The notes under the pieces: model-generated | Told to the model about the DNA's origin: nothing | Databases searched by the model: none | The model's input: only the letters and a program-made list of their open reading frames with translations | Program-made: the position numbers and the translations under genes | Source of the DNA: Gonapodya sp. JEL0774 | Taxonomy: Eukaryota | Assembly (NCBI GenBank): GCA_027604505.1 | Contig: JADIIX010000097.1 | Location: 1 to 64,000, forward strand | DNA length: 64,000 nucleotides | Reading direction: 5' to 3' | Shown here: piece by piece, positions 11,333 through 54,600 of the stretch | How positions within the stretch are numbered: the stretch's first letter is position 1 | Layout of the letters: each line of letters starts with the position of its first letter

Positions 11333-12695
11333 TCACACCAACACCTCCATCTTCGCCCCCACACCCAGCCCCCGCTGCACGCTGCTGTCTGTTACTTCGA
11401 GTCTGTTCAGCACTTCCCGCAGCGAGCCGCTCTCTCCTGTTGTGCCAAACACTCCGCCTTGCATCTTTGTCTGGCTTATCGCGCCAGCCCAATGGTCAGG
11501 GTATGCCGCGGCTGTGCAGTCGGTGACCATGATGCATTCGTAGCCGCGGTCGTTGGCGGCGCGCATCGTGGAGTGAACTGGCAGTGGATTTGGGATGATA
11601 TGAGATGCAGTGATGAAGACGTAAGAGAAGTAAGAATACGCACCACAGACGTCCGTTGTGACGCCAGTCAAAATGAGGTTCTTGATACCTGGTATCGTGG
11701 AATTTTCAGTTCATTTTAGGTCAGGGTTAGCTCTGTCCACTCGCGTCATGCCTGGTCCGCTCAGGGGAAACGCACCTCGCAGCTGCAGCGTCATGTCAAG
11801 ATCCGTAGCGTAGAAGCTGTTCTTGCCGGGTTTGTCGATCACAATTTCACCCTTTAGGGGTGCGAGTTCGGGAATGATCTCCCAGCCGGGTTCGCCGCGA
11901 ACAAGGAGGCGACCTGAGCAGTGAGTGGAAGAAAGGCAAAACGTCAAACACAGAAGGATGTAATTGTGTTCCAAAAGAGTGTGATTTTGGAGGGCTCGAG
12001 TCACTTTGGATATTTGAGAGGATGACATACCCAGCGGTCCCTTGTCTCCGATACCAATTCCTCCAGCACAGACAGCTCTCGTTCGGACACGTTTGCTCTC
12101 AGGCATGTCGGACAAATCTGGTCGATGACCTGTCGATCGCAGTTGTTGAGGTGTATTTCCGGTAGCGACAAGAGGGAGGTTGTCAACAGAGCGACGCCAG
12201 AATCATAACGGGTTCATGCTTGCCTTCGCGTGTGTGTATAATGGTCAGGCCAGATTTCCGACAAGTTTCGAGGAGAGACTGGATGTTGGGGATGATTGCT
12301 CGACATGCATCGAGTGATATGCCCTGAGAGTCAAGGTAGCCACCCTTTTCGCAGAAATCGCGTTGCATCTTTCATTGAAGTTGGCGAGCATGTAATATTT
12401 CAGTACGCGGCGCAGAGCGAACAAGACGATTTGACCCAAATTCGTCGAGATCAACTCACATCAATAATAATGAGCGCAGTGTTACTATATAAAAACGATG
12501 AAGCCATGAAAACATATGTTAATTACAACTCTTGAGTTTTCCGCAGGCGTATGAATCGCTCGAAAAGTCTTCCCATGCAGCCTCCAACCCCAATCATTCC
12601 ATTCCCCATCCCCACCTAGCTGTCAGATCTCCATCCCATGGCCAAGCATATGGTACTGAGTCCGATACCGTGAGAAATTGCGGGTGTCCGTTCAT
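11333..12695 (-). CDS. Isochorismatase-family cysteine hydrolase, divergent biuret/guanylurea-hydrolase-like paralogue, multi-exon (alternative in-frame ATG at 12749)
   Basis: [98 protein letters not shown]. Asp-Lys-Cys triad intact. Confidence 0.88.
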
Positions 12696-12836: not shown

Positions 12837-14263
12837 ATGACACTCTTTGTTCAAGCAGATCCATCGCCATGGCCATATGACGGCAATCTGACGCCAAGCA
12901 ACACCGCAATCATCGTCATCGATGTATGTGGGACATTCTCGCAGACAAAAGTCCTCAGTCCAAATTCTTCATTAATCAATCTTTTGGAACTTTCAGATGC
13001 AAAGGGATTTCTGCTCACCCGGTGGCTACGTGGATGTTATGGGTTGTGGGTTCATAAATCGCATTTCGCGAAACAGGACTTCTGCTGATCCCATTGCTCT
13101 CCTACAAACCACTGTTCAGACTCTCTTGTGAGCTCATAGATATCATCCATTTTGTTGTGTGAAGCTCTCCATGTTTTATTGATTTGCTACCATCGTGACT
13201 CTGGTAGGACGCCGCCCGAAAGTGCATCCAACCCATCGCCAACGTTCTCGAAATCAGCCGCCGAAAGGGGTTCCACGTTGTTCACACACGTGAAGGTGCT
13301 AAGAAATTGTTGTTTCGTCTCCGTGCTGGGCGACCCCCAACAACCCAAGTGACGAAATCGCACGACATTTGCAAAAGGCCACGATCCAGACCTCCATGAC
13401 CTCCCAGCGAATAAGCGGTGGCGTAGCAGACAAATCGGCAACGGAATTGGAATCGGTGATAAAGGCCCACTTGGTGAGAAATCAGATCCTTCATGTCTTT
13501 ATGTGGAACCATCGGAGCCTTCCATGGCGGATGTGAATGATGCTGTGTATATGTGTATACACACAGTGTTGTTGCCTATCATCATCACCCCCATCCACTC
13601 CAGTATGCTGATGCCGTTCCAAACTCTTCCCAACATCAGGCCGAATCCTCGTCCGCGGAGAGCCAGGGTGGGAGATAATCCCCGAACTCGCTCCTATTCC
13701 CAACGAGGTCATCATTGACAAACCAGGGAAGGGATCTTTCGTGAGTGCAATCGCGGCCAACGTACCATCCGTGTGTTCTCCACTTCCTCCTTTTGTCGCC
13801 GCTTTCTCAACAAATTGCTAGTACGGGACGGATCTAGAACTTATCTTAAAGCTCAAAGGTATGTAACTGTCAGTCCGGCGAGATACTTCGCGCAAATAAT
13901 TCTTCAGCTGTCTCCCACCCAACCCCCCACCACCCTCCCTCCTCCCAGGTATCCGCAACCTGATCATCCTGGGCGTCACAACGGACGTCTGCGTGCAAAC
14001 TACTTGTCGAGATGCGAACGACATGGGTTTTGAATGCGCGCTATTTCGCGATTGCAAGTTGAATGGTTCCCATTTTCTCGCGGTGACCCCTCAGTGAAGC
14101 ATTTCCACACCAACGGACACACACAGGCACCGCAGCGACCGACTTTAATAACTATCTCGTTGCTTTGAAAACTGTTTCTCAGCAGGGTGGACTATTTGGA
14201 TCTGTTTCGGACTCAACGTCCTTTATTGAGGCCGTCTGGGGACTTCCCGATATTTCATCATGA
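12837..14263 (+). CDS. Biuret hydrolase-like (BiuH) cysteine hydrolase, 9 exons
   Basis: [115 protein letters not shown]. Closely resembles bacterial BiuH as I recall it. Confidence 0.88.
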
Positions 14264-14346
14264 TCAGAAAGTCGTATGTGAATGTTAATATTAGCGAAAC
14301 AACAGGAGAGCATGCCCAAAGCAAACGGAGGATACAAATTTGAGAT

Positions 14347-14395
14347 CGATAACGTGTATCCCGTTATCGGGGGTGCTGATCAGTGGAGCGATAAG
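14347..14395. promoter_or_regulatory. Clustered GATA elements upstream of the permease (candidate nitrogen-catabolite-repression sites)
   Basis: CGATAACG (14347-14354) and CGTTATCG (14362-14369) form a perfect inverted pair; GATAAG at 14390-14395. Confidence 0.45.
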
Positions 14396-14733
14396 AAGAA
14401 ACGCCGACGGGAAGAACCCCTTTAGGAGAACCCCTGTTGCCCCTCCACATTTATTAAACCCGATCGCTTCCTTCCGGATTGATTAGCGAAGTCATTCCGG
14501 TTTCCACTTCCACTCTATACAGCCCAGGATTGAGACGTGCCCGAACCTGCAATTATGTCGGTGAGTTGCTTTCTTACGGTCCTCTGCCTTGTGCCTGCGC
14601 CTTGGCCATTCGTACCTTCCGCGTGATCGGTCACGCCGCGGATCCATTAAGACGCGAATGCGGCGTTTCGAACTCAAACAATGGATGCTGAGCGTAGAGG
14701 AAATGCAGGATCCCATGAAATCGAGCGAGAAGG

Positions 14734-17700
14734 ATGGTTCGCCCTATTGTCCCTGTCACCCACCTGCTCACACCAACTTACATCCCTCCCATTAATCGAA
14801 ACACCCGCTCACAGTTCCTTCAAACGGTTAATAAACGCGTCGCCGAATCACCGATCGGAACGTGGTTCTGTCTAGAGGGCTCCAAGGCCAAGCTTCCCGT
14901 CAGTTGCTTCTGGTAACCCCTTTTGTCGGCCGTATCTCATCCTAGTGAAACCCACAAATAGCGCGCAGGAACTACATTTTTCGGGGAGATTCGCGCGGGG
15001 CTTGCAACCTACATCACTATGGCGTACATCATCTCTGGTGCGCTCATCGAATAGCCCTTGGTTTTGATGTGGCGTTTAAATACTTTTCCGATTGCCTTCT
15101 CCCATCAGTAAATGCAAATGTCCTGTCTTTATCTGGAGGACCCTGTGTCTGCACTGCTGGACCATCTGATCCCATTTGTAAGTTGTTTGTAAGTCACCGC
15201 GTTAGTTCTTTGATCCAACCTGGTTTGGGCCTTCCTATTAGGTGCTGTGGACCCTGCCTACAATGCTTGTGTTTCCGGTGAGTTAAACTCTCGACGGTAG
15301 TGCTTATTGCACTTGTTTTAGCTCACTCACGTTGCCCATTTGTTTCATAGCTGTCCGCCGTGACATGGTGACAGCAACGGCGTAAGTTGCTGCTCTCCTT
15401 GCCAGAATGTCATGTGATCTTCGCTCACTTCCCACTGTGAAACCAGTGCCATTAACGCCCTGTCCACCGTATTAATGGGAATCGGTGCCAACTTGCCGTT
15501 CGCGCTGGCACCAGGTCTCGGAGCGTCTGCTTACTTCACTTTTACTGTCGTTGGATTCCATGGCTCTGGCTCCACCAAAGTATGTCGGCGCCGCCCAGAG
15601 TTGGAGTTTGATTGAAACTAACTCAAGAATAAACCCTTGATTTCATTGATTCTAGTATGGGGACGCTCTCGGCGCCATTTGCCTCGAGGGTATCATTTTT
15701 GCCATTCTCTCAATCTTGGGTGTCCGTCAATGGCTCGCGCGGTGAGTTGCGGATCCTGCAATCCCGAGCCAAGACTCACAGTGCGATCTCCCCGAACAGT
15801 CACATCCCAGACACCATCAAAACAGCAACTACTGGTGGAATTGGATTCTGTAAGTGCAATAATGCTGATTCTCCTACCGGCGTGCTGAACGAATTATATC
15901 ACCCATTTAAGTCTTAACATTCATCGGTCTGCAAAAGTCCGCCGGTGTTGCGATGATCGTTGCTGGTGAGTGATCCACGCTCCTTCTTATGGACTCGCTC
16001 TTAGTCATTCGCTCTAAATAGACAGTGCAACTTTGGTGGCCCTTGGAGGGTGTCCTTTGGGCGACATCGATTCGGCTGGTGAGCAACTCCTGTTGTGACC
16101 ACCTTTGTTGATCAACTTTAACGTGCATTTATGCGCTTTAAAAAGGCTTCTGTAATGGTAACCAGATGCGTAGTCCCACTCTATGGATTGGAATTCTCGG
16201 ATTTTTCATCATCATTTTGGTGAGAGAAAAATACCGACCTCAATTCGAGTATCCCTTGTAACCGAAAATGCGAATTTCAGGGAATGGCTTACAAGGTCAA
16301 GGGCTCCATTCTTATAGGCGTCCTCTTTGTGGGATTACTCTCTTGGATCCCTAACACACCTTTCACGTACTTCCCAAACACAACTGATGGTCAAGACCGC
16401 TTCTCGTATTTCAAAAAGGGCGTTGGTAAGTTCTACTTGTCGGTATTATTTCGCGTGATAGGCGATCGGACCTACCCAAATCCGTTTCTTCTCCCAGACT
16501 TCCACGTCATGGACACAGTGCCCGGCTCGATACGTTTCAACCTTGCGAGTGACAAAGTGTGGGGAGCATTGGTAGCTTTCCTCTTTGTCGTGAGTTGAGA
16601 GGCTGGTCGTCTTTTCGTATTGTATGTTGAACAGGTGGTTGACCCTTTTGTTGTTCACTTTCACAGGATATTCTCGACACCACAGGATGCCTGTTCTCCA
16701 TGGCGCGATATGCGGGCTTGATGAACTCACGGGGAAATTTCCCCGGCGACTGTAAGTTTTCTTTTCGCAAATCGTTTAAACAGAACTTTTCCTATCTAAA
16801 CATCTTTGCCTGACCTCTGGCCAAACAAACACTACTTACATACATCAGACGCCGCATTCATCATTGATGCAACATGCATTGCTATTGGCGCACCCCTCGG
16901 CACCTCTCCCGTGACGGTGTACATCGAATCTGGCGCTGGTCTGCAGGAAGGTGGACGGACTGGTCTGACGGCTGTCACGACCGGTATCATGTTCTTCCTC
17001 TCCTTGTTTTTCGCGCCGATTTTTGCTTCGCTACCACCGTGGGCTAGCGGACCTGCACTTGTTGCCGGTGAGACTGGAAACTTGGAACCATTATGTTCCC
17101 TTCGCCCGACTGAAACTTCCCTCACAACTTTCCCCAGTTGGCTCTATGATGATGCCCGAAGTAACTCATTGCAACTGGAAGTACATGTGAGTGATGCACA
17201 GGGTGGGGAGACAGGAATCATGATTGATCTAACTGGCATATTCGGATTCTCCTCTCTTGTGAACTCTAGCGGTATGGGTCTTCTCAGCGTGGAATTCTTG
17301 TTTATGGTTATCCAGTCCCTCATTCGATCGATTGTGTTATTATTTTTTCAGGCGATGCCGTTCCGTCCTTCCTCACCATTATGTAAGTTGCAGTTCTTGG
17401 AGGGGAGTCGGTTTTGACCAACAGAGCTAATCTTGCGTTCAAACTTAAAGTATTATGCCCCTCACATACAATATCGGTGAGTTTCATCCACTTGTCTCGA
17501 GAGGCGCTCGCCATCAAACTTGCTAATCTTCCGTCCTACTTTTTTGTAGCGGTGCGTGTGTTTGTTCTCTGTTGATCCTCCAAAACTGAAAATTGCTCAC
17601 TGCAATCTTCTTCTCGTAACTGTTTGTCCCAATGACTGCAGTACGGCATGTTCGTAGGACCATGGCTTGTTCAACTTCAGTTGTCATTGACTGACCTTGG

Positions 17701-18106
17701 TATCCTCCATTTCCCCGCAAATCTCACAGTGGCGCCGGCTTGTTCAGCTTCATCGCGATCAATGGCGCGATCTTTATCATTGAAAAGGCCAGCGGTGGCA
17801 GGATAACCACTGATCAGACAGACCGTCAACCGTGGCGCCAGGAGGGTGACGACAACTTCGTGAGTGATTCGATTGTTATTTCTCGATCTTGCTCGGTGTG
17901 TTCCAAGCATGATATCAACCATGCTTCTCAACTGATCTCACTCGTAGATTCTCCCCGACTGGGCTGTCCGTCGACTGTACGGAAAGAAGGACAAGGACGT
18001 CGACTCGCTTGACATCAAGCAAGTTCCTTCCGAGGCGGTGCCTTCGGAAATGGGTACCATCATTGTCGCGGACGAGCTGGCGGAGACTGCACCTGCAAAG
18101 GTGTGA
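14734..18106 (+). CDS. azgA: AzgA-type (NCS2 family) purine/nucleobase permease, about 20 or more exons including micro-exons
   Basis: [112 protein letters not shown]. The start is inferred as an ATG-only first exon at 14734. Confidence 0.9.
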
Positions 18107-18374: not shown

Positions 18375-18906
18375 CTACATAAGAAAGTCCACACATGTCT
18401 CGTATCGAGACCAAGCATCTTTGGCAGATTGGACTGCCTCCGGTGATGGATGTTGCAACGAGCAATCAGGGCTATCGGCAAAGAAATGGACAGGCCGCTC
18501 GTAGATCGCGAGGATGATGCAGCCCTCCGGGGAAGAAAGCGAGTGGCCGCTACCAGGATAGTGCGTCTGCGGAATTCATAAGATACTGCCAGATCGGAAT
18601 CGTCCCCCGACAACTCCGTTTCCTCACCCTCATCTGGCCCTTCTTCACCACTCCAAACTCGTCTTCCTGCGATCCATCCAAGACGATGATATTCTCGAAA
18701 CCTCGATGCACGTGAAAAGGCACTTTCGCTCCTGGACTGTACTTTAGAATCCGGGCTGACGGTCCATCAGTGACGTTGTAGAGCGGGTACTGAACTACGC
18801 CAGGGCGGAACGGCTGGAACGGGAGTGCGGCGAGATCGGAAGGAGAGAAAAGCGAGCAGGGCAGCAGGGAGTGTGCGCTGGACGGGAAAGATGTCGGTGA
18901 TGACAT
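18375..18906 (-). CDS. Small ChrR-like cupin protein, 2 exons
   Basis: LPFQPFRPGV...ARILKYSPGAKVPFHVHRGFENIIVLDGSQEDEFG, intron, then THYPGSGHSLSSPEGCIILAIYERPV. Shows the cupin HxH...E and later H metal ligands. Confidence 0.85.
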
Positions 18907-21564
18907 TCCGGGTGACACAGGAGTTTCACCGAGAGTTGATCGATATCTCGTCGGGGATGGACCCTCACAAAAGCATTGAACGATAATTTACATAACCCCC
19001 GCTTTATCACAACGAATGGAAGTGAAAATCCAATGTTAAATAGCGAACTTCCTGCACTTAGGATATGCTTCTGCGAGCTCTTCCCGTAGGACCTGGATGG
19101 GAGGTGTGTCGTGTTCTTCGAACCAGTATACGTTGGCACGCTTGTGTCAACAAGGAGATTGTGGGGTCATCTGTTCGCGCTAGATGTCATACGATCCTAG
19201 CATCTCTTACTGAGACGCCTCGATGTCAGATTTTGAACGGAATGCCGAGGTCGGGCATGGGGAACTTGTTCTGAGCACCTCAGAAGTGTTTCAATGAACG
19301 AGAATGGAAGGCTGTTCCACGGGGAAATCGGCAAAAAGATTGACGTGTTAAGCTAGTACCTCTACTGATAGTGTGAACTGGGTTGGAATGTGTCCCACTT
19401 TCCCAAATGAATACGAAACCCTCCAAAAGAAAGAATGGGCGGGAATGGTAATGACATGGCGCCAAGCTCACGATATTCCAGATGCAGCATCTCCGCCGAG
19501 CAAAGGAGCTCTTCACGTACAAACGAGGGCGGCCCCTGACTCTCGTCCGCCGCGTCTCAAAATCAAGCCCCACAAGGACCTAAAGAAAACCGATGTGGAT
19601 TCTCTCCGGACGTGTCCTTCAAGAGGGAGGACGAGGTCGTGTCAGTCGGCGCTTCATGTTTGCCCATGTACCTTAAATGGTTTGTCTGGCTGCCGCTGCC
19701 GCTCCGGAAAGGTGCAACTGTTCTGATTTACGTTGAAGAGGAGTACGCGGTCTTTGCCATGGGGTGAAGCAGACCTCCCTATTGGTACGCACAAAGCCAG
19801 TCCAGCTCAAGTTTAACAGTGTCAACGAGAACCGGTACCGGGCTCTTATCAAGAACTTCCCCATGCTCGCATGGAGCGCAAATCACGAGGAAGAGAAGAG
19901 AGGGTAGTGGTTCGAACCCACCCCTCCGAGCTACACTGCCGGAGGTACCTTACAATTCTGGACGAGGATCCCTACCATGGCTGAGATGGAGACATTTGTC
20001 AAGGAGTTTCATGCACAACCCAAGAAGGCGGCCGCTTTGGTGGGATGGTGACGGTATTCCCTCTCGAACACCCCCCGACGTTCTCAACATTCGCAACCGG
20101 CACTTTGAGGCGCTGTCCCACCGGTGCGTGTTGTTTTCGTTTCCATCCTTTGTTGCCTTCCTTGCACAGAACATCGCACGCACCCTCACGTCAAAATCAT
20201 TTGAAAGGGTCTTCGACTAGATGAAAGCTTGTCCGGTGCATTGGTTGAAATGCGATCGCGATACAAGCCCTGTGCAGACGAACCGCATGTATACTACATG
20301 GGGAGGGGTTCCCGGAATTCAAATTGAAAGAAAAACAAAGTTGTAGAAATAGGGGAATGTGCTTCGATATAAGGAAACACTAATGAGCTTGAATGTGACT
20401 TTCCAATTGTTTTCTTTCCCGGTTTCCTCCATTGATCTAGGTTACGCTCGTTCCTTTTCACAGTCGAAACATTTAACGCTCATATTGACGTTTATGACTG
20501 GCTGCGTGGTACCGTGCCGAGTTGTAGTGCAGCTGCTAAGTACCCTCCTCGCCGTTTGCGTGTAATGTGAACAGCTTTACTATGACAACATGAATTGTGT
20601 TCCACAATGTTTAATGAAATTACCAAACTTTACATTGCCGCTCGCAAGCAGAGTCCGGTGAAAGTATCTTGCTCTCTCTCTCGGTTAAGGCATCTATCTG
20701 CGTAGTAAGCGTAGGCACCTGCTCTCATAACATGACTGTAAAGTTGGTCCGGTCACGTGAATCATCCGTCTGCAAATTTCTTGTGTTTACAGTTGGACAA
20801 GCAATGAAGCAGGCCTTGCGAGGACTGTATGGATTTGCATGTTGAAATGTGTTTGCTTGGATCGGTTTACCGCGTGCGTCCATTCTCACCATTCTCACGG
20901 GGGTGCATACCATGTATCACCAACCTTGCAGTTTTGTTGTGATGATGACTGTTCCAATGAAACGGAAACCAAACACAATATTATATCGGGGAGTTGGACC
21001 AATCGGGTGAACACAGCACCCTTTGGGGCGGCTCCTCACCGACAGACGACAACAAAGCAGACCAGAAAAAAGGACAAAAAAAGGACGTGTTCCTGCGACA
21101 TTTTCGCCTGCGAAGTTTTTTTTGGCCAAGCGGGGAACAATCCAGGAGGGTTGTTATAGGGAACTAGAGAATGACATACGACGCTTGTGCTTCGCTTGTT
21201 CTGTCGTGGAATAAGATGAGCGGACTCAAAGAAGCTTTCCGTGTCCGCAACGGAAAAAAAGAGTGACAGCAGGAGGCTGCCGCCCTCCTCTCTCGGAACG
21301 GCGCATTGGCTTGTGTATAAAAGCAAGGTTTCTTTCATTTCCGTTTTCATTGTTTCATATACGTTCTCAAGGTAAGAGATGGAAGTTCCAAATCGTATTC
21401 GTGTCCGCCTTGTGTTCACTTTGGCTTCATCGTCCCTCTGCGGCTGTTGGTCCCACCTCATCCGTAAAAACTCCCTCTCAATCGTTCTCAAATCCTCCCA
21501 TCACACCAGCCGCGTTTCTTTTTCCTATCTTGCTCTATACTCTTCTCCCATCACACTCTCCGCA

Positions 21565-44104: not shown

Positions 44105-47100
44105 ATGGCGGAGGAAGTCGGCCGTCGAATTCAATATCAGTACACCGCGAACTCCAACCTCGTCCTACAAGCTGATCGTTCTCTCATCACCCGACGCGAT
44201 AACGAACCCACGGGTGAAGCGGAGTCGCTCTGGGGGAAAATCAATCCGAAGGGCTTCGGTGACCGGGCGCAGAGGACTGTGGACGACGAGAAGAAGAAGA
44301 GAGAGGAACGAAAGAAGGAAAAGGAGGAGAAGAGGAAGAGAAGAGCTCAGGAGGGCGGGACCGGTGCGGGTGGCTTTGAGGATGAGCTTGACGATGGGGT
44401 GGGGAGGCGGAAGGAGAATCAAAGGTGAGTTTTGTTTGTCTAATTGATTGTTACAGCGCCCTCTTCAAGTATTTGAGATGGCGAACGTGAGAGCCAACTG
44501 GAGGTCGAGTTTACTTCTGTCTCCAAACGTTGGCAAGGGTTTTCTGGGTGGTGAAACCATCGCAGACCAAAGCATGAGGAGCAATCAAGGAAATTCCTGG
44601 CGCTGCCCGCCGAGTCTTTCCTTTACTTACATTCCGTTTATTCTAATTTACACGCTCTCTCTCCGCACCGTCTCAGGGGGGCTTCTAACATCCTCTCTGC
44701 TACCGACCTCGATGCAGAAGTTGCATACCGCCCGCGTACGCGGGAGACCCGTCAGGCTTACGAACTCATTTTAGCGTTTTGTCAACAGCAGATGGACGAT
44801 GTGAGCAGAGATGTCCTGAGGGATGCGGCAGATGAGACGATTGCAGTATTGAAGGATGAAAGTTTGAAAGTAGGTCTTGTGCTGTGCGGACTTCGGTAGA
44901 TTGAATTCTCATGGCGATTGGATCTTATTGCTTCGCTGGGCGATCTCCAACCAACCCTCCACTGCCCAATCCCCCCTCACCCCCTTCCGTCCCCCACTGC
45001 CATGCAGGACCTCGACAAGAAGACTTCCATCGAATCGTACCTCCGACCTATGTCATCTGAGCGTTTTGCGCAAATTGTCGCGCTCGGCAAACGCATCACC
45101 GATTATCGCCCCCCCACAGACGATGCAGGCGGTCCTGCTGCTGACGACCGAGACCGTGCCGCGACGATGGATGAGGAAACGGGTGTTGCGGTAGTGTTTG
45201 ATGAAGAAGAAGACCAGGATGATGAAGAGGAGGATGAGGATGTTGAGATTGTGAGAGAAGAAGAGGATGACGATGAAATGATGGATGACGGGAGGGAAGG
45301 GGTGGAGGCGGATGCGGGGAGTGCGTTGCGGTATGCGGATGGTGGAGATGGCAAAAATGATGACAATGTGGACGACGAGGAAGGCACGGAGAGGATTGTG
45401 CTGTCGAGCGAGAACGTCCGTGGTGGGAAGGGCGCCGAAGGCCGACGAGGCGACGATGCAACCACTGCCGCAGGATCCTCTGGCACTTTATTATCCGTAC
45501 ATGACATCGACGCATTTTGGCTTCAGCGTGCCGTGTCAAGGCGATACCCGGATGCAGTCACTTCGCAGCGAAAGACTGAGGAGGCGATGCGAGTGTTGGC
45601 GTCAAGTGCAGATGCACGAGAGGCCGAGAATCTGCTTATGGAGCTCTTCGAATACGAGCACTTCGACCTCGTCAAGGATTTAGCTAGGAACAGAGCATCA
45701 GTGGTGTGGGGAACTAAATGGGCAAAAGCTGGCAACGACCAGGAGCGGAGAGAAGTAGAGGCGGAAATGGAGGCCAGTGGAGATGCCGCAGTGAGGTCGG
45801 CATTGGCCGCTTTGAAGGGAGGAGAGAGGAAGGCGAAGGGCGAAGGGCTCCGGCGAAAGGGTGTCGTGGAAGGCGCAGATAAGATGGACCTTGACGACAA
45901 GCCGGGAGTAACAGTGACAACGGCAACTGGACAGACTGTGGAGACGGCTTCCCGGCCAGGAGGCGGGAGAGGCAAGTTTACCGCACCCGCTACAAGACCT
46001 CCGCGCCAACTGTTGGATTTAGATCAGATCGCGTTCACGCAGGGCAACCATGTCATGTCTAACAAGAAATGTCGGCTGCCCGAGGGATCTTTCAAACGCA
46101 CTAAGAAGGGATATGAGGAGATTCACGTACCGGCGCCCAAAGCGAAGCCGTTTGCCAGCAATGAGAGGTTAGTTGAGATTGCCGAGATGCCTGAATGGTC
46201 GCGCAAGGCGTTCCCCAACACTGCCCAGCTCAACCGAGTGCAGTCTCGAGTCTATAAATCTGCCTTTGAAATGGACGAAAATATGCTCCTGTGTGCGCCG
46301 ACTGGTGCGGGGAAGACCAACGTGGCAATGCTAACAATCCTGAGAGAGATTGGCAAATACCGCAACCCTGAGACCGGAGAACTCGCACTAGACCAATTCA
46401 AGATTATCTACGTTGCACCCATGAAAGCGTTGGTTCAAGAGATGGTGGGGAACTTCGGAACACGGTTGGCATCATTTGGAATTAAAGTTGCGGAGCTGAC
46501 GGGTGACAGGCAAATGACTAAGCAGCAGATTGCCGAAACACAGATCATTGTCACGACCCCCGAGAAATGGGACGTCGTGACACGTAAAGCCACGGATCGG
46601 AGCTACACTAACTTGGTTCGCTTGCTCATCATTGACGAAATCCATTTGTTGCATGATGACCGTGGTCCGGTTCTCGAGAGTTTGGTCAGCAGGACTCTGA
46701 GGAACATTGAGACGACGCAAGAGTACGTAAGACTGGTTGGTCTGTCTGCCACGCTGCCCAACTACGCGGATGTCGCCGTGTTCCTGCGGGTGGACCCGCA
46801 GAACGGTCTTTTCTTTTTTGACAACACATTCCGTCCTTGTCCTCTGAAGCAACAGTATATTGGCATCACTGAGAAAAAAGCGATAAAGCGGTATAACATG
46901 ATGAATGAGATCTGTTACGACAAAGTGATGGAGGAAGCCGGCAAGAACCAGATGCTGATTTTCGTTCACTCTCGGAAGGAGACTGCCCGGACTGCTAAGG
47001 CCATCAGGGATATGGCTCTTGAAAAAGATACCGTTGGCAAAATTCTGAGGCAGGATGCCGCGAGCAGAGAGATTCTCCAGACCGAAGTCAACGACGTCAA

Positions 47101-50100
47101 GAATGCCGATCTCAAGGACCTCTTGCCGTACAGTTTTGCTATTCATCACGCCGGAATGACTAGGGCGGATAGAACCTTGGTAGAAGATTTGTTTGCAGCG
47201 GGTCACGTTCAGGTGCGTTGACCTTCCTACACTTCGACTTTCTACCTTCCGCAACTGTTTTTCTCACAAGATAACTAATCTAGGTTTTGGTGTCTACTGC
47301 GACTCTCGCGTGGGGTGTTAACCTTCCCGCTCACACCGTTATCATCAAAGGAACCCAGGTGTATTCCCCAGAGAAAGGACGCTGGGTTGAGCTATCACCG
47401 CAAGACATGCTTCAGATGTTGGGTCGTTCCGGACGTCCTCAGTTTGATACGTTTGGGGAGGGTATCATCATAACTTCTCATGCGGAGCTGCAGTATTACC
47501 TATCACTTCTGAACCAGCAACTTCCAATCGAATCGCAGTTTGTGAGCAAGCTGCCTGATAACTTGAATGCTGAGATTGTCCTTGGTACCATTCGCAACCG
47601 TGACGACGCAGTTCAGTGGCTTGGTTACTCTTACCTGTATGTGCGAATGTTGAGGAACCCCGGGTTGTACGGAATATCCCCGGAGGAGAGTTCCGATGAC
47701 CCTTACTTGGAACAGCGGAGAGTTGATCTTATTCACTCTGCGGCAACTATGCTGGATAAGAGCAATCTAATCAAGTATGACAAGAAGACAGGTCGTTTCC
47801 AGGTCACGGAATTGGGTCGCATTGCAGCTCACTACTACATCTCTCACACCTCGATGGCTATGTACAACCAGCATTTGAAACCTAGTATGAGCCTCATCGA
47901 TTTGTTTCGAGTGTTTGCTTTATCCGACGAGTTCAAGTATATCCCTGTTCGTGAGGAGGAGAAGCTTGAACTGCAAAAGCTAATGGAAAGATGTCCAATT
48001 CCCATCAAGGAGAATCTGGAAGAACCTACCGCCAAGGTTAATATTCTTCTTCAGTCGTACATCTCTCAATTAAAGCTGGAAGGGTTTGCTCTCATGGCAG
48101 ACATGGTGTACGTGACGCAGTCAGCAGGGAGACTTCTAAGGGCAATCTTCGAGATCTGTCTCAAGCGGGGATGGGCGCAAATCTCCCGTAGGTCCTTAGA
48201 CCTCTGCAAAATGGTGGATAAGCGGATGTGGTTATCAATGAGTCCTCTGAGACAATTCAAGAGCACTCCACCGGATATTATCAAACGATTGGAGCGGAAA
48301 GAGTTTCCTTGGGACCGATATTACGACTTGAACCCCCAAGAGTTGGGGGAATTGGCTGGTCTGCCCAAAGCTGGTAAACTCATCCACAAGTTCGTACACG
48401 AGTTCCCAAAGCTCGAACTTCAGGCACGTGTGCAGCCCATCACTCGCTCGCTCTTGAAAGTCGACTTGACAATCACTCCAGACTTCCAATTCGATGAGAA
48501 AATCCACCTAGGAGGCGCCGAGCCTTTCTGGATCGTCGTTGAGGATGTGGACGGAGAAAACATTCTGTTCCATGATATATTCCTCCTCAAGCAGCGGTAT
48601 GGACAGGAAGAGCACTTCGTCACGTTCACCGTGAGTTTCAAATAGTTCATTCCTAAGTTGCGAGTTCTTATGATGTATTCCGTAGGTTCCCCTATTCGAA
48701 CCACTCCCTCCCAATTATTTCGTCAGTGTCGTCAGTGACCGATGGCTTCACTGCGAGACCCGCGTGCCGATCTCTTTCAAACATCTTATTCTTCCTGAGA
48801 AGTATCCGCCTCACACGGAGCTGTTGGATCTGCAGCCCCTGCCAGTCTCCGCTTTGCGAAATAAAGAGTTTGAAAATCGTTACAGCGAGATTGGTATAAA
48901 GACTTTCAATCCGATCCAGACGCAGGCGTTCAATTCTCTGTACAACTCAGATGACAACGTTTTTGTTGGAGCTCCTTCGGGCTCCGGAAAGACAATCTGT
49001 TCCGAGTTTGCTCTAATGCGTCTTTGGACTCACAACCCACGTGCGCGGTGCGTTTACATTGCACCTTTCGAGGAAGTTGTGGAGCACAAAGCAGCAGAGT
49101 GGCGTGAACGATTCGGCCAGGTGCTGGGAGGGAAGAACATTGTAGAGTTCACTGGAGAGACTGCAGCAGATCTCAAATTGTTGGAGAAAGGGGACATCGT
49201 CTTCTCCACGCCCGAACGTTGGGACGCCATCTCCCGCAGGTGGAGGCAAAGAAAAAATGTTCAGACTGTGGGACTGTTCATTATGGATGAAATTCACTTG
49301 GTGGGCGGGGAGGGTGGACACACGATGGAAGTCATCACCTCAAGGATGCGCTTCATCTCTGTCCAAAAGGAGAAGCAAGGTGAACCCAAAACCCGAATCA
49401 TTGCTTTGGGTACTTCACTTGCCAATGCCAGAGACCTGGGCGAATGGATTGGAGCAACTACTCACTCTATCTTCAACTTCCATCCCAACGTGAGGCCCGT
49501 ACCACTCGAGATCGTCATTCAAGGTTACAATGTCCCACACTTCGCTTCGCTCATGCTTGCCATGACCAAGCCGACGTATCTCGCACTTGGAGATAAGCCT
49601 GCAATCGTTTTCGTGCCTAGTAGGAAGCAAGCCCGTCTCACCGCGGTAGACTTGCTGACTTACTGTGCTGCGGACGACGAGGAGCGCCGCTTCTTGCATG
49701 TCAAAGATGAGGAAATGGAGCCACATTTGAAACGTGTGCAAGACAAGTCGCTCGTGGAAGCTCTCAGCTTGGGTGTCGCGTTTTATCATGAGGCACTGAG
49801 CAAAAACGACAAGCGTATTGTTGAGCGGTTGTTCACGATTGGCGCCATTCAAATTGTCGTCGCGAGCAGGGAAACTTGCTGGGGTCTCAATTTAAAGGCT
49901 CAAACGGTTGTGATAATGGGGACGCAGTACTACGAGGGCAGGGAACACCGTTACGCCGATTACCCTATCACAGATGTTTTGGAAATGATGGGCAAAGCAA
50001 CGAGCACGGATGAAAACGAAACCGGGAAGTGCATCCTCATGTGTCAGGCGGTGAAGAAAGATTTCTACAAGAAGTTCCTTTATGATGCTTTGCCCGTGGA

Positions 50101-51471
50101 AAGCCACTTAGACCACTACCTTCACGACCACTTTAATGCGGAGATCGTCACGAAAACGATTGAAAACAAGCAGGATGCAGTTGACTACCTCACGTGGACG
50201 TTCCTCTTCCGCCGTCTGACTCTTAATCCAAATTACTATGGCCTGCAGGGCAAAACCCCACGACACTTGAACGATCACTTGTCTGAATTGGTTGAGAAAA
50301 CCATTACCGATTTGGTGAACAGCAAGTGTATTTCCGTTGAAGACGATATTGAAGTGAACGCTCTCAATCTCGGAATGATCGCTGCCTTCTACTACATAAA
50401 CTACGCAACTATTGAGATGTTTGAGCTATCGCTCACTTCAAGTACCAAACTTCGTGGCCTATTGGAGATCGTTGCTGCTGCCGCAGAGTTCGAGACCGTC
50501 GCCATCCGGCTCCATGAAGATATTGTACTGAAGCGGCTGTACGATCGGTTGCCAGTAAAGTTGACCAACCCCAACTTTAATGACCCTCACATCAAGACCA
50601 ACATTCTTCTGCAGGCACACTTCTCGAGGCTCACTCTGCCCCCCGACCTTGAGTCTGACCAGCGTTCTATTTTGACGAAAGTCCTTAACCTCATCCAAGC
50701 GGCGGTCGATGTCATCAGTAGTAACAGCTGGCTTTCACCTGCGCTCAGTGCGATGGAATTGAGTCAAATGTGCGTCCAGGCAGTGTGGGATAGGGACTCG
50801 CAGTTGAAGCAAATCCCTCACTTTACCAACGAGATGATCGAGATTGCAAAAAAACTTGAAGTCGAAACAGTGTTCGATATTTTGGAGATGGACGATTCTA
50901 AGAGACAAGAGCTTTTGAAAGGCCTGAAACCAGTTCAAACGTCAGAGATTGCTAAGTTTGCTAATCGGTATCCCAACATCAGTGTTGCATTCAAGGTAGA
51001 ACCAAAGCAGGTGGAGGCTGGTGAGCAGGCTGTCGTGCTGGTAACCTTGGAGAGGGAGGCCGACGAAGAGGATGAAGAGAAGCCAACTGATGTAGGGCCT
51101 GTAATCGCTCCGTTCTTCCCTATGAAGAAGGATGAAGGATGGTGGCTTGTTTTGGGCGAACAGAAGAAGAAGAGCTTGCTAGCAATCAAGCGAACAACAC
51201 TCCAGCAACGTGCGACGGTTAAGTTGGAGTTCACTGCACCTGAAGTGCCGGGCCAATACGACTTGAAATTGGAGTTCATCTCTGACTCATTCATTGGAGC
51301 CGACCAGGTTTGTGGGCTGTTTGGAAGTTTTTGTTTTTTTTGACTCCTTGCGGTCTCTGATTAAACCTACCTCCTTGTTTCATCCATTCGCAGGAGTACG
51401 TAGTGTCGTTGGAAGTCGTTGAGGGTGAAGGAGGTTCGGATGAAGACGAGGACGAAGAAATGGAGGGATAG
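44105..51471 (+). CDS. BRR2: U5 snRNP 200-kDa Ski2-like RNA helicase Brr2/SNRNP200, multi-exon
   Basis: [74 protein letters not shown]; a second helicase cassette [13 protein letters not shown] and Sec63 domains. Confidence 0.98.
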
Positions 51472-51676: not shown

Positions 51677-54600
51677 CTAAGTTTCTGTCGTGGTGTGTGC
51701 TGTAAGCAGATTGGGAAGATGCGTGGGTGTGCTCCAGCCTTTCACCATGTCTTTCCTTCCGTTTAACCGCCGCCATGCAGTTTCAATAATTTTACCGACA
51801 AGATCGGCATACTTGAGTCCTTCAAAATTGGCCATGTACGCCAACTTTCCATCCCAACACCAACCAGGGTTAGGGTTGACCTCAAGAAGTTTAATCGTTC
51901 CACCCAAACCATCGTAGCCATCTCCCTTCCCGACGTCGCTGCGAAAATCAAATCGAGCATAGTCCACACAGCCAAATCTCTCCCAGAGTACAACGCAATG
52001 CCTGCGCAGATCTCTCTCCACTGTGGGGTGGAGTTGCGCTGGACGGTATTTGATTTCGCTCCAGTAGGGGGAATTTGGATCCCATTTGCTTTCGTAGCCC
52101 AGAATAGGCGGTAAGTTACGCTCCACAATCTTGGAGTAATCCACTTCTAGAGTCGGGAAGAAATGGAATCCAGTTTCGGCGTTACCAATCATCCCCACAC
52201 CATACTCAGTACCCTGAAGATATTCTTGGACAATCATATCACGTATTCCCCAGGCGCTAAGCTCCTTCATATACGCTTCAAGTTCCGATTTGTCCCTCAC
52301 GATGGATCTCGTTGTTATCCCCAAGGAGTTGTCCCCTTTCACAGGCTTCACAAACGAGGGGTATCCAACCCTGCGGATGACCAATTCGTGTAGCTCATCA
52401 AGGCTTGCTGCTGTTCTATTTGCCGACTCGGTTGTTGTCGTCTCATCCGGCGAGGAGTAATACACCTCTCGAGGGATGGGCACATTGAGAGTTTTGGCGG
52501 TTCTGTTTACAAGCCCCTTGTCATAGCAGAACGCAAGGCAATTCGGACCAGCTCCTGTGTACGGTATCTCAAGGACATCCATAATCGCGGGGATATGAAG
52601 TTCTTTGTTTGCATCATTGTCGAATCCCTCGTCACACAGGTTCAGCGCGAATTGAGGACGGTCAGTTTTGGCTGGGCTCGCCCACTCCCGCAATAGCCGA
52701 GAGTGGTCCGAGAAGACACTAAGATTTCCAGCCTTTTCTGAGAATCCAACGTGAGCGAGCGCGTCGAGCAACTTGCGCCTGGTCTCCATGTCCTCCGCGT
52801 TCCACGTGTTGTTGAGCTTGCCGAAACAGGGGCGACTTGGATCCCCAAGAACGACACTTAAATGAGGAATGTGTGAGACGAAGTCAAACTGTTGGTCATG
52901 AGTGGCTAGTGGCAATGACTCGGACAGAACGTGGACACCGTCCGGGAAGTTGTCAGAATGTTTGAAAATTGAGAGCGACGAAGCACCTCCATCCGTCCCA
53001 CTATGTAAACAAGAGCAATGCAATTGTCAGCAACCGAACACAGTAGTCGACTATTCTACAGAGTGGTTATCTCACCTGTTCGTTTCATCATCGGCCACTA
53101 TGGTTTCAACCGAGATGGCCTTACAAGCGATCACCGTATCTGGAGTTGATGAAAGTTCGTCTGTATGTACTTGGGGATGTGCAGCCATCTGAACCTGCTG
53201 GAATATCTGAACCAAGCACTTAGATCATTTTGGAAATGCGACTTTCGGTCAACTCTCTGTAGGTTCACCTCATGAGCGGCATCGCTGCCATATTCTTTGG
53301 CAAGCTTGAAGTTATTAGGGTCGTCATTGTCGTCTCCAGGTTCTTCATCAACAATACCTGTCTCCAGCGCCATCTTCTCCCTGTGTATACTAGGGAGCAT
53401 CATCCAGCCCCCTTTCTCGTCGCGCTCCGAGTCTACCCTAGGAAGATCTTCAGGACCTCCTGCCTTGTAAAATTTGACAAGGATGCGCCGTTCCATCATC
53501 CCCAGATCTTCTTGCCTCTTCGACAGCTCCTTTGCAACTGTGACAACACCGGCGTCACCACGTTCTACTATCCCTGAATCGGAGTCGCGGGCCGTCTTGG
53601 AACCACGCTCATCTTCACTGTCGCAAGAGGAGCCGTTGGGTTGAGCTGAGGCGAGGTGAGGTCCACTGCCGGTGGCGGAATCACTGGTTGGACTTGGGCT
53701 CGGGGCGGCACCGCGACTCTCTTCGTCCCGTACGATGAGAAACCCGGCACGCCGCACGAGCTCCTCTATCTCGTCTCTTGAGTAAAGTCTTTCCTGATAA
53801 AATTGATCCCGCACAACTCCCTTCCCAACGGCGGTGATGACCTCACGGGAAACGAGGCGCTTGCCGTCTGCCGATAGTTGGCGCTCACGACATACAAACG
53901 TCGCGTCGTCAACCCACTCCCAACTGCGTTCTGCAAAGCTACTCCTCATATGTTCACCATCTGTCAGGTCGAGGACACCGCGACCTCCCGGTGCCATAAC
54001 ACGATGAATTTCTGCGAGAACTCTCGCATCCTCCTCATCTTCGGCGTGATAACCAAATGAATTTCCCATGACCAAGACACAGTCGAACGCGGAGTTCGGA
54101 TAGGGAATACGACGTGAATCTCCCACCGTGAAACGGGCGTTGTGGGTGGAGACTGTGTGGGTAGCGCGTTCACGTGCTAAATTGATAAGATAGCTGGATT
54201 GGTCGTGACCATGAAGATGAAGGTGGGGATATTCTTGAGCCAGAAATAGCAGGTGGCGGCCTTGACCGCAACATAAGTCTAGGACGCGAGATGGGGCTTT
54301 TGAAGCTGGGGATGAAATGTTGGAGGATGTGAAATTAGAGGTATGGCACTCTTTTGGTAGACGATTAGAATTTCATCGCAGATGAAGTCGTTGTGGCTCA
54401 ATTTCGCTGAAAGATTTAGCCTGTGTCCTCCATGCTCCTAGACGCAACACTCTACCCCACAGACTTCACCTCGAGGTCAACGCAGGGGAACCAATCTCAG
54501 GCGCAAAAGCTTCGTCATTGTCAAGCTTTCGAGATTTGTTCGCCTCTGGACTTCATATTGCCAAACTGAGACCGCTCTCCATGTCAGTGTCAAGCCCGTA

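Follow-up and report, generated by a model that had tools for sequence, protein, structure and literature searches.

The question raised by this locus is whether the gene of a putative purine permease in Gonapodya sp., a water-dwelling chytrid fungus that we take to belong to the Monoblepharidomycetes, contains coding exons of only two nucleotides, and whether such exons would be a regulatory device or an ordinary outcome of the way in which the gene is divided. The gene (14555 to 18106, plus strand) lies in a 64,000-nt stretch of DNA, the whole of which is here called the window. It has 24 coding exons with an open frame of 567 amino acids and no internal stops, and its coding length of 1,704 bases is split by 23 introns, all of them GT-AG in the model and 22 of them 56 to 97 nt in size. 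The 6-nt first coding exon and the 254-nt intron behind it were read by hand and not recovered by the aligner, and the last exon was taken from the public protein P0001. An independent whole-gene spliced alignment recovered 21 introns between positions 14899 and 17729, and three tiny exons of 2, 2, and 8 nt emerged from it unprompted. We consider these three exons to be needed by the conserved frame and likely to be ordinary, always-included exons that would be spliced by intron definition with stepwise intron removal, and we give this reading a probability of roughly 0.86.

The permease was assigned to its family on the basis of PF00860, which was matched by one of its exons in a Pfam scan, and of full-length homology. 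The only PDB matches of a profile built from 21 fungal homologues were AZG1 (8IRL) and AZG2 (9J12). The translation also contains EGGRTG, which agrees with the sequence E-G-G-[RKA]-T-G that ends motif 4 as defined for AzgA/AZG transporters (PMC11527162; the comparison concerns the end of the motif only). Full-length homology and EGGRTG are the features that the permease has in common with AZG1, AZG2, and Phanerochaete PhZ (PMC11527162). By sequence, the permease is a member of the AzgA/AZG purine transporter family, with a putative role in substrate uptake.

The tiny exons follow a 49-nt exon (17138 to 17186) that ends with the first two bases of Ile449 and has a GTGAGT donor at 17187 (8.7 bits). 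The next intron (17187 to 17269) contains a branch-point-like CTAAC (17229 to 17233) and leads to the first 2-nt exon, CG (17270 to 17271; TAG/CG/GTATGG), which supplies the last base of Ile449 and the first base of Gly450. This residue is glycine in 136 of 145 full-length homologues (500 to 660 amino acids, out of 224 proteins). The acceptor and donor of this exon (1.4 and 2.5 bits) are at the weak end of the range of the gene, as scored with a matrix trained on just 18 other introns. The spliced path continues through a 31-nt exon (17352 to 17382) and a 26-nt exon (17451 to 17476) that covers the IMPLTYNI region and has an AAG acceptor and a GTGAGT donor. Another branch-point-like motif, CTAAT (17523 to 17527), is found in the following intron (17477 to 17549), and the second 2-nt exon, also CG (17550 to 17551; TAG/CG/GTGCGT; donor, 7.9 bits), completes Ala469. 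Its GT and its AG are each the top-scoring site within positions 17477 to 17641. The 8-nt exon (17642 to 17649; CAG/TACGGCAT/GTTCGT) encodes Tyr470, Gly471, and two bases of Ile472; its donor is weak (-0.7 bits), and the two complete residues are conserved as tyrosine in 135 and as glycine in 145 of the 145 homologues. It is followed by a 130-nt exon (17730 to 17859). The introns that flank the tiny exons are 83, 80, 73, 90, and 80 nt long, and all of them are GT-AG introns.

The positions and splice dinucleotides of the three exons, as well as the starts of CTAAC at 17229 and CTAAT at 17523, thus agree with those given in an earlier sequence-only reading of this DNA, and translation bore out its claim that inclusion of the exons restores NWKYIGDAVP and TYNIAYGIGAG. 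In the best spliced path all three are internal coding microexons (at most 15 nt), each with an AG acceptor, a GT donor, and spliceable flanking introns. A recursive-splicing ratchet point is a zero-length AG/GT site at which no exonic bases are kept; the 2-nt exons do not fit this description, since their two bases are required for the frame.

How strongly the model is forced depends on the protein family. The microexon stretch spans 29 residues and is free of insertions and deletions in all 145 full-length homologues. When a dynamic programme based on these homologues searched for the best GT/GC-AG path on protein score alone, it returned exactly these three exons (140.0 bits). A lower limit of 3 nt on exon length reduced the best score to 125.8 bits, and a limit of 9 nt reduced it to 103.2 bits (GT donors only) or 119.0 bits (with GC donors).

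In the full-length family hidden Markov model (HMM), where the tiny-exon model scored 787.9 bits, the margins were smaller. The exons at 17270 and 17550 could instead extend to 8, 10, or 17 nt by the use of other canonical donors, in which case the frame is kept and the scores (776.9 to 781.3 bits) are 6.6 to 11 bits lower. However, these donors score -6.4 to 1.5 bits against 2.5 to 8.7 bits for the proposed ones and are each 6 to 11 bits weaker, and the resulting proteins either lose a tyrosine kept in 143 of 145 homologues or a glycine kept in 145 of 145, or insert two to five residues where none of the 145 homologues has an indel. We find this arrangement quite improbable.

The closest competitors by protein score, at 783.9 and 786.6 bits, were models with no 2-nt exons, in which the upstream exons are two bases longer and are followed by 163-nt GA-AG introns; the tiny-exon model exceeds them by only 4.0 and 1.3 bits, a modest margin. 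A glycine at position 469 occurs in 31 of the 145 homologues, and the reported frequency of GA-AG sites in Ganoderma (0.038%; PMC11590231) is not much lower than that of 2-nt exons in Coprinopsis. Frequent use of GA-AG sites is tied to two animals in PMC7072748. Under these models, however, a consensus GTGAGT donor two bases upstream would have to be ignored, twice. The first of these models also gives Met-Cys, neither of which is among the four commonest residues at those columns, and both leave unexplained why family-compatible AG-CG-GT sites lie in the middle of the supposed introns, each with a chance probability of 0.15 to 4% across criteria. GA-AG splicing is very improbable here.

The AG-CG-GT motif as such carries no weight. 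Across the window, AG-N2-GT was seen 4 times against 2.4 expected, which is not above chance, and a window-wide motif scan for exons of 1 to 9 nt found 21 candidates against 24.1 in shuffled sequences and was uninformative. Because the bare motif is at chance level, the evidence for the exons is their fit to the family and not the motif. Each of the two would-be long introns was dinucleotide-shuffled 20,000 times. Sites that preserve the family residue appeared in 450 and 799 of the shuffles, and when a GTRHG donor was required in addition, the numbers fell to 30 and 39. Multiplication of the rates gives a joint chance of about 9 in 10,000 for both family-compatible sites and of about 3 in a million for sites with consensus donors. 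These figures bear on the idea that the gene is a recent pseudogene, or that the assembly lost two bases twice, with the AG-CG-GT sites arising by chance. The chance-level frequency of the motif alone would suit that idea, but the remainder of the 567 codons is open and the splice sites are canonical throughout, and with the joint chance being so small we judge it extremely improbable.

The fact that both 2-nt exons read CG had been pointed out, but we see no signal in it: CG is the dinucleotide that most often ends an exon of the permease gene (7 of the 23 exons with a donor), and codon constraints fix the G of the first 2-nt exon and make C the preferred base in the second. Intron length was rejected as a decisive argument for the tiny exons, because the neighbouring hydrolase gene has a 166-nt intron with no need of a microexon. 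Three 1-nt or 2-nt exon candidates were picked out by motif only, at 30679 (plus strand, with a GTAAGT donor), 10451 (minus strand), and 3541 (plus strand), and their counts are at chance level.

The best database match of the gene, P0001, is labelled Gonapodya sp. and is identical to exons of the window, and its public model differs from ours at both ends. At the 3' end, it uses the acceptor at 17269, reads 17270 to 17314 as one exon, and then jumps to 17730, and in doing so it drops the 31-nt, 26-nt, second 2-nt, and 8-nt exons. The conserved segment from DAVP to YGI is consequently replaced by intron-derived residues. At the 5' end, the reading of P0001 begins at 15112 in a different frame, and the first three exons have no counterpart in it; it misses the exons at 14815 to 14898 and 14962 to 15037 and the true frame of 15109 to 15177. 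The family HMM score of P0001 is 621.9 bits against 787.9 bits for the corrected model, and a model with only the 3' error of P0001 scored 725.9 bits. The expectation that gene predictors would miss such exons therefore holds for P0001, in which none of the three is present as a separate exon. The correction repairs a public transporter record whose conserved membrane segment had been exchanged, and the annotation of intron-rich chytrids likely fails at such places.

We compared the sizes of the exons with those expected if the 23 introns had been placed at random. The mean number of exons of at most 2 nt was 0.59 against two seen, and two or more were obtained in 11.5% of 20,000 trials; for exons of at most 8 nt, the mean was 2.3 against three seen, and three or more were obtained in 40%. 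A cluster of six introns in 69 coding bases, as found here, is mildly unusual (2.5%). The small size of the exons is probably a side effect of a very high intron density, with introns falling 2 and 8 bases apart. Gonapodya prolifera is reported to have the highest intron density of the fungi analysed in PMC8476143; an orthologue from this species was not among the best 120 matches of either protein search.

The introns of the permease gene are not copies of one another (best local score, 24), and they gave no sign of an introner-like element. A metagenome scan with the family alignment yielded 80 loci, of which 24 that looked eukaryotic by identity and span were aligned and 56 were left out; a scan with P0001 gave 83 pattern matches, none of which was confirmed. 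The 24 fungal-like AzgA loci have 0 to 8 introns, whereas the Gonapodya gene has 23. None of the introns at profile columns 450, 451, 461, 470, 471, and 473 was found in the approximately 17 of these loci that reach the stretch, and none of the aligned loci was shown to be a close relative of Gonapodya. One intron position (column 91, phase 1) is common to the Gonapodya gene and three of them. The clustered introns may have been gained in this lineage, or they may be old and have been lost elsewhere.

In three neighbouring genes of the window, one of which was picked for having tiny exons, 4 of 34 internal exons are at most 8 nt long. A bolder generalization, which we regard as unlikely, is that the spliceosome of this group of chytrids takes almost no account of exon size, so that exons of 1 to 3 nt are under no negative selection and occur at the rate of random placement. 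Coprinopsis, as estimated roughly from the microexon counts and Table 2 of PMC12230235, is about fivefold below the random-placement rate. If size blindness were true, the Gonapodya genome would hide hundreds of exons of 1 to 3 nt, many public gene models would be wrong, and the organism would offer a natural system in which to study the lower limit of exon size. The six introns in 69 coding bases are in any case a compact substrate for studies of splicing order.

The consequences of skipping were followed by translation. Loss of either 2-nt exon shifts the frame, as had been predicted, and leads to a stop at codon 489 (17781 to 17783, in the 130-nt exon), and loss of both leads to a stop at codon 496; the translated skip forms end at codons 489, 496, 487, and 494. 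When all three tiny exons are skipped, the frame is kept but the conserved segment is replaced, and the score falls to 721.8 bits from 787.9 bits. The protein is likewise truncated or garbled if any of the four introns next to the 2-nt exons is retained. The C-terminal part, which is described here by a hydropathy sketch only, holds the last two hydrophobic stretches of the protein, and these are lost from the truncated forms. They are likely TMS13 and TMS14 of the gate domain, which comprises TMS5 to TMS7 and TMS12 to TMS14 in the PhZ model (PMC11527162).

Because the flanking introns are ordinary in size and ends, the splicing of exons this small would be most simply explained by intron definition, with the introns removed step by step. 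The spliceosome would pair the sites across each short intron and not across the exon. Each of the introns that flank the 2-nt exons (73 to 90 nt) offers it a GT donor, an AG acceptor, and a size usual for the gene, and a putative branch point is present in the intron that precedes each 2-nt exon. Once the first intron is gone, the two bases would be joined to an exon of normal size, and the second intron could then be spliced as usual. Skipping would be a splicing error in which the frame shift and the loss of the last two hydrophobic segments leave no working transporter. We infer in this way the inclusion of the tiny exons in the mRNA, their constitutive use, and the mechanism of their splicing. 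Ordered, intron-by-intron splicing has also been put forward for APC11 of Arabidopsis, whose 1-nt exon is constitutive (PMC4674806), and plant microexons are reported to be mostly included, with their flanking introns removed late (PMC8831610).

The sequence-only reading had further suggested that skipping could act as an on/off switch. In such a scheme, the 2-nt exons are real but are skipped under certain conditions, and the frameshifted message is degraded so that purine uptake is turned off. Message decay would be consistent with the position of the stop at codon 489, some 76 nt upstream of the last junction, the first 2-nt exon has a weak donor, and a condition-dependent microexon has been described in Trichoderma Xlr2 (PMC11121469). 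On the other hand, every frame-shifting exon has the same property, and 835 Coprinopsis genes have a microexon of this kind (PMC12230235). Skipping would also require a 165-nt intron in a gene where 22 of 23 are 56 to 97 nt, and the outcome of random placement indicates that the exon sizes need no special cause. Skipping a 2-nt exon gave neither an in-frame form nor a usable second protein, as a switch might be expected to do; it only destroys the product, and fungi are reported to show low levels of exon skipping (PMC6142364). The switch found no support, and we hold it to be improbable.

Exons of 2 nt had also been presented as being near the lower limit of splicing. This limit is not an unexplored one, as 1-nt and 2-nt exons are documented in Coprinopsis (PMC12230235) and Arabidopsis (PMC4674806). 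In the long-read-based annotation of Coprinopsis cinerea (13,617 genes), exons of 1, 2, and 3 nt number 13, 57, and 27, respectively (PMC12230235). The 57 exons of 2 nt are spread over 50 genes, and some genes there must therefore carry more than one. The Coprinopsis exons resemble those of the permease in being internal, in causing premature stops when omitted, and in having been missed by earlier annotation. However, Coprinopsis is a basidiomycete with long-read support and a mean of 4.8 introns (PMC12230235), whereas the case of Gonapodya, an early-diverging fungus, with 23 introns in the permease gene, is inferred from homology. The 1-nt exon of APC11 (PMC4674806) and the plant microexons of 1 to 15 nt (PMC8831610) are likewise frame critical, flanked by short introns, and misannotated in databases, but they have been tested experimentally and are conserved across plants, whereas the Gonapodya exons are predicted from sequence. 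In Trichoderma virens Xlr2 (PMC11121469), a fungal microexon also alters the product by its inclusion, but it is condition dependent and both isoforms are active, whereas skipping in Gonapodya truncates the transporter. Microexons down to 6 bp have been reported in Phanerochaete P450 genes (PMC1184071). A literature search by title and start of abstract, which reached few subscription papers, returned no report of microexons in chytrids. The permease likely adds a lineage of early-diverging fungi to the mushrooms and plants in which 2-nt exons are known, and no new mechanism is demonstrated by its tiny exons.

Unlike the AzgA/AZG systems with which it was compared, the Gonapodya permease adjoins two biuret-hydrolase-like genes. 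The first (12837 to 14236, plus strand; PF00857) is directly upstream on the same strand. Its best PDB matches are 6AZS, 6AZO, 5BK6, and 6XJM, and it was aligned in nine exons, with a GC donor at 14054 and the 166-nt intron mentioned above. It requires an 8-nt exon of its own (13120 to 13127; 384.3 bits with the exon and 370.9 bits without it). The second (11405 to 12662, minus strand) is arranged head to head with the first and has one GC donor. It lacks the two tryptophans of the KRWR stretch of the family, and its substrate may differ. The Pfam scans were run on 293 items, namely P0001, one exon, and 291 ORFs out of the 511 that reach 62 amino acids, plus one repeat; apart from the two hydrolases, they revealed no other gene that is rich in introns and has a family profile at hand.

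In a predicted protein of another chytrid, Nowakowskiella (P0122), a biuret-hydrolase-like domain is fused with an AzgA permease, and the two parts follow the order of the corresponding genes in the window (12837 to 18106). The pairing of hydrolase and permease may be conserved in chytrids, and biuret or a related product of purine breakdown might be transported by the Gonapodya permease. The best matches of the hydrolase domain of P0122 (58 to 70% identity) are mostly unnamed metagenome proteins; named matches are few and, apart from a Nowakowskiella paralogue, bacterial. This pattern hints at a horizontal origin of the P0122-type hydrolase, followed by intron gain.

Downstream, a ChrR-like cupin gene (18553 to 18987, minus strand; PF12973) is arranged tail to tail with the permease. 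The gene for the splicing helicase BRR2 (44555 to 51340, plus strand) has open frames of 773, 453, and 885 amino acids; with frames this long, intron density must vary widely between the genes of the window. Long open frames for a D-Ala-D-Ala-ligase-type ATP-grasp protein (PF07478) and a methyltransferase lie side by side at 51680 to 54372 on the minus strand.
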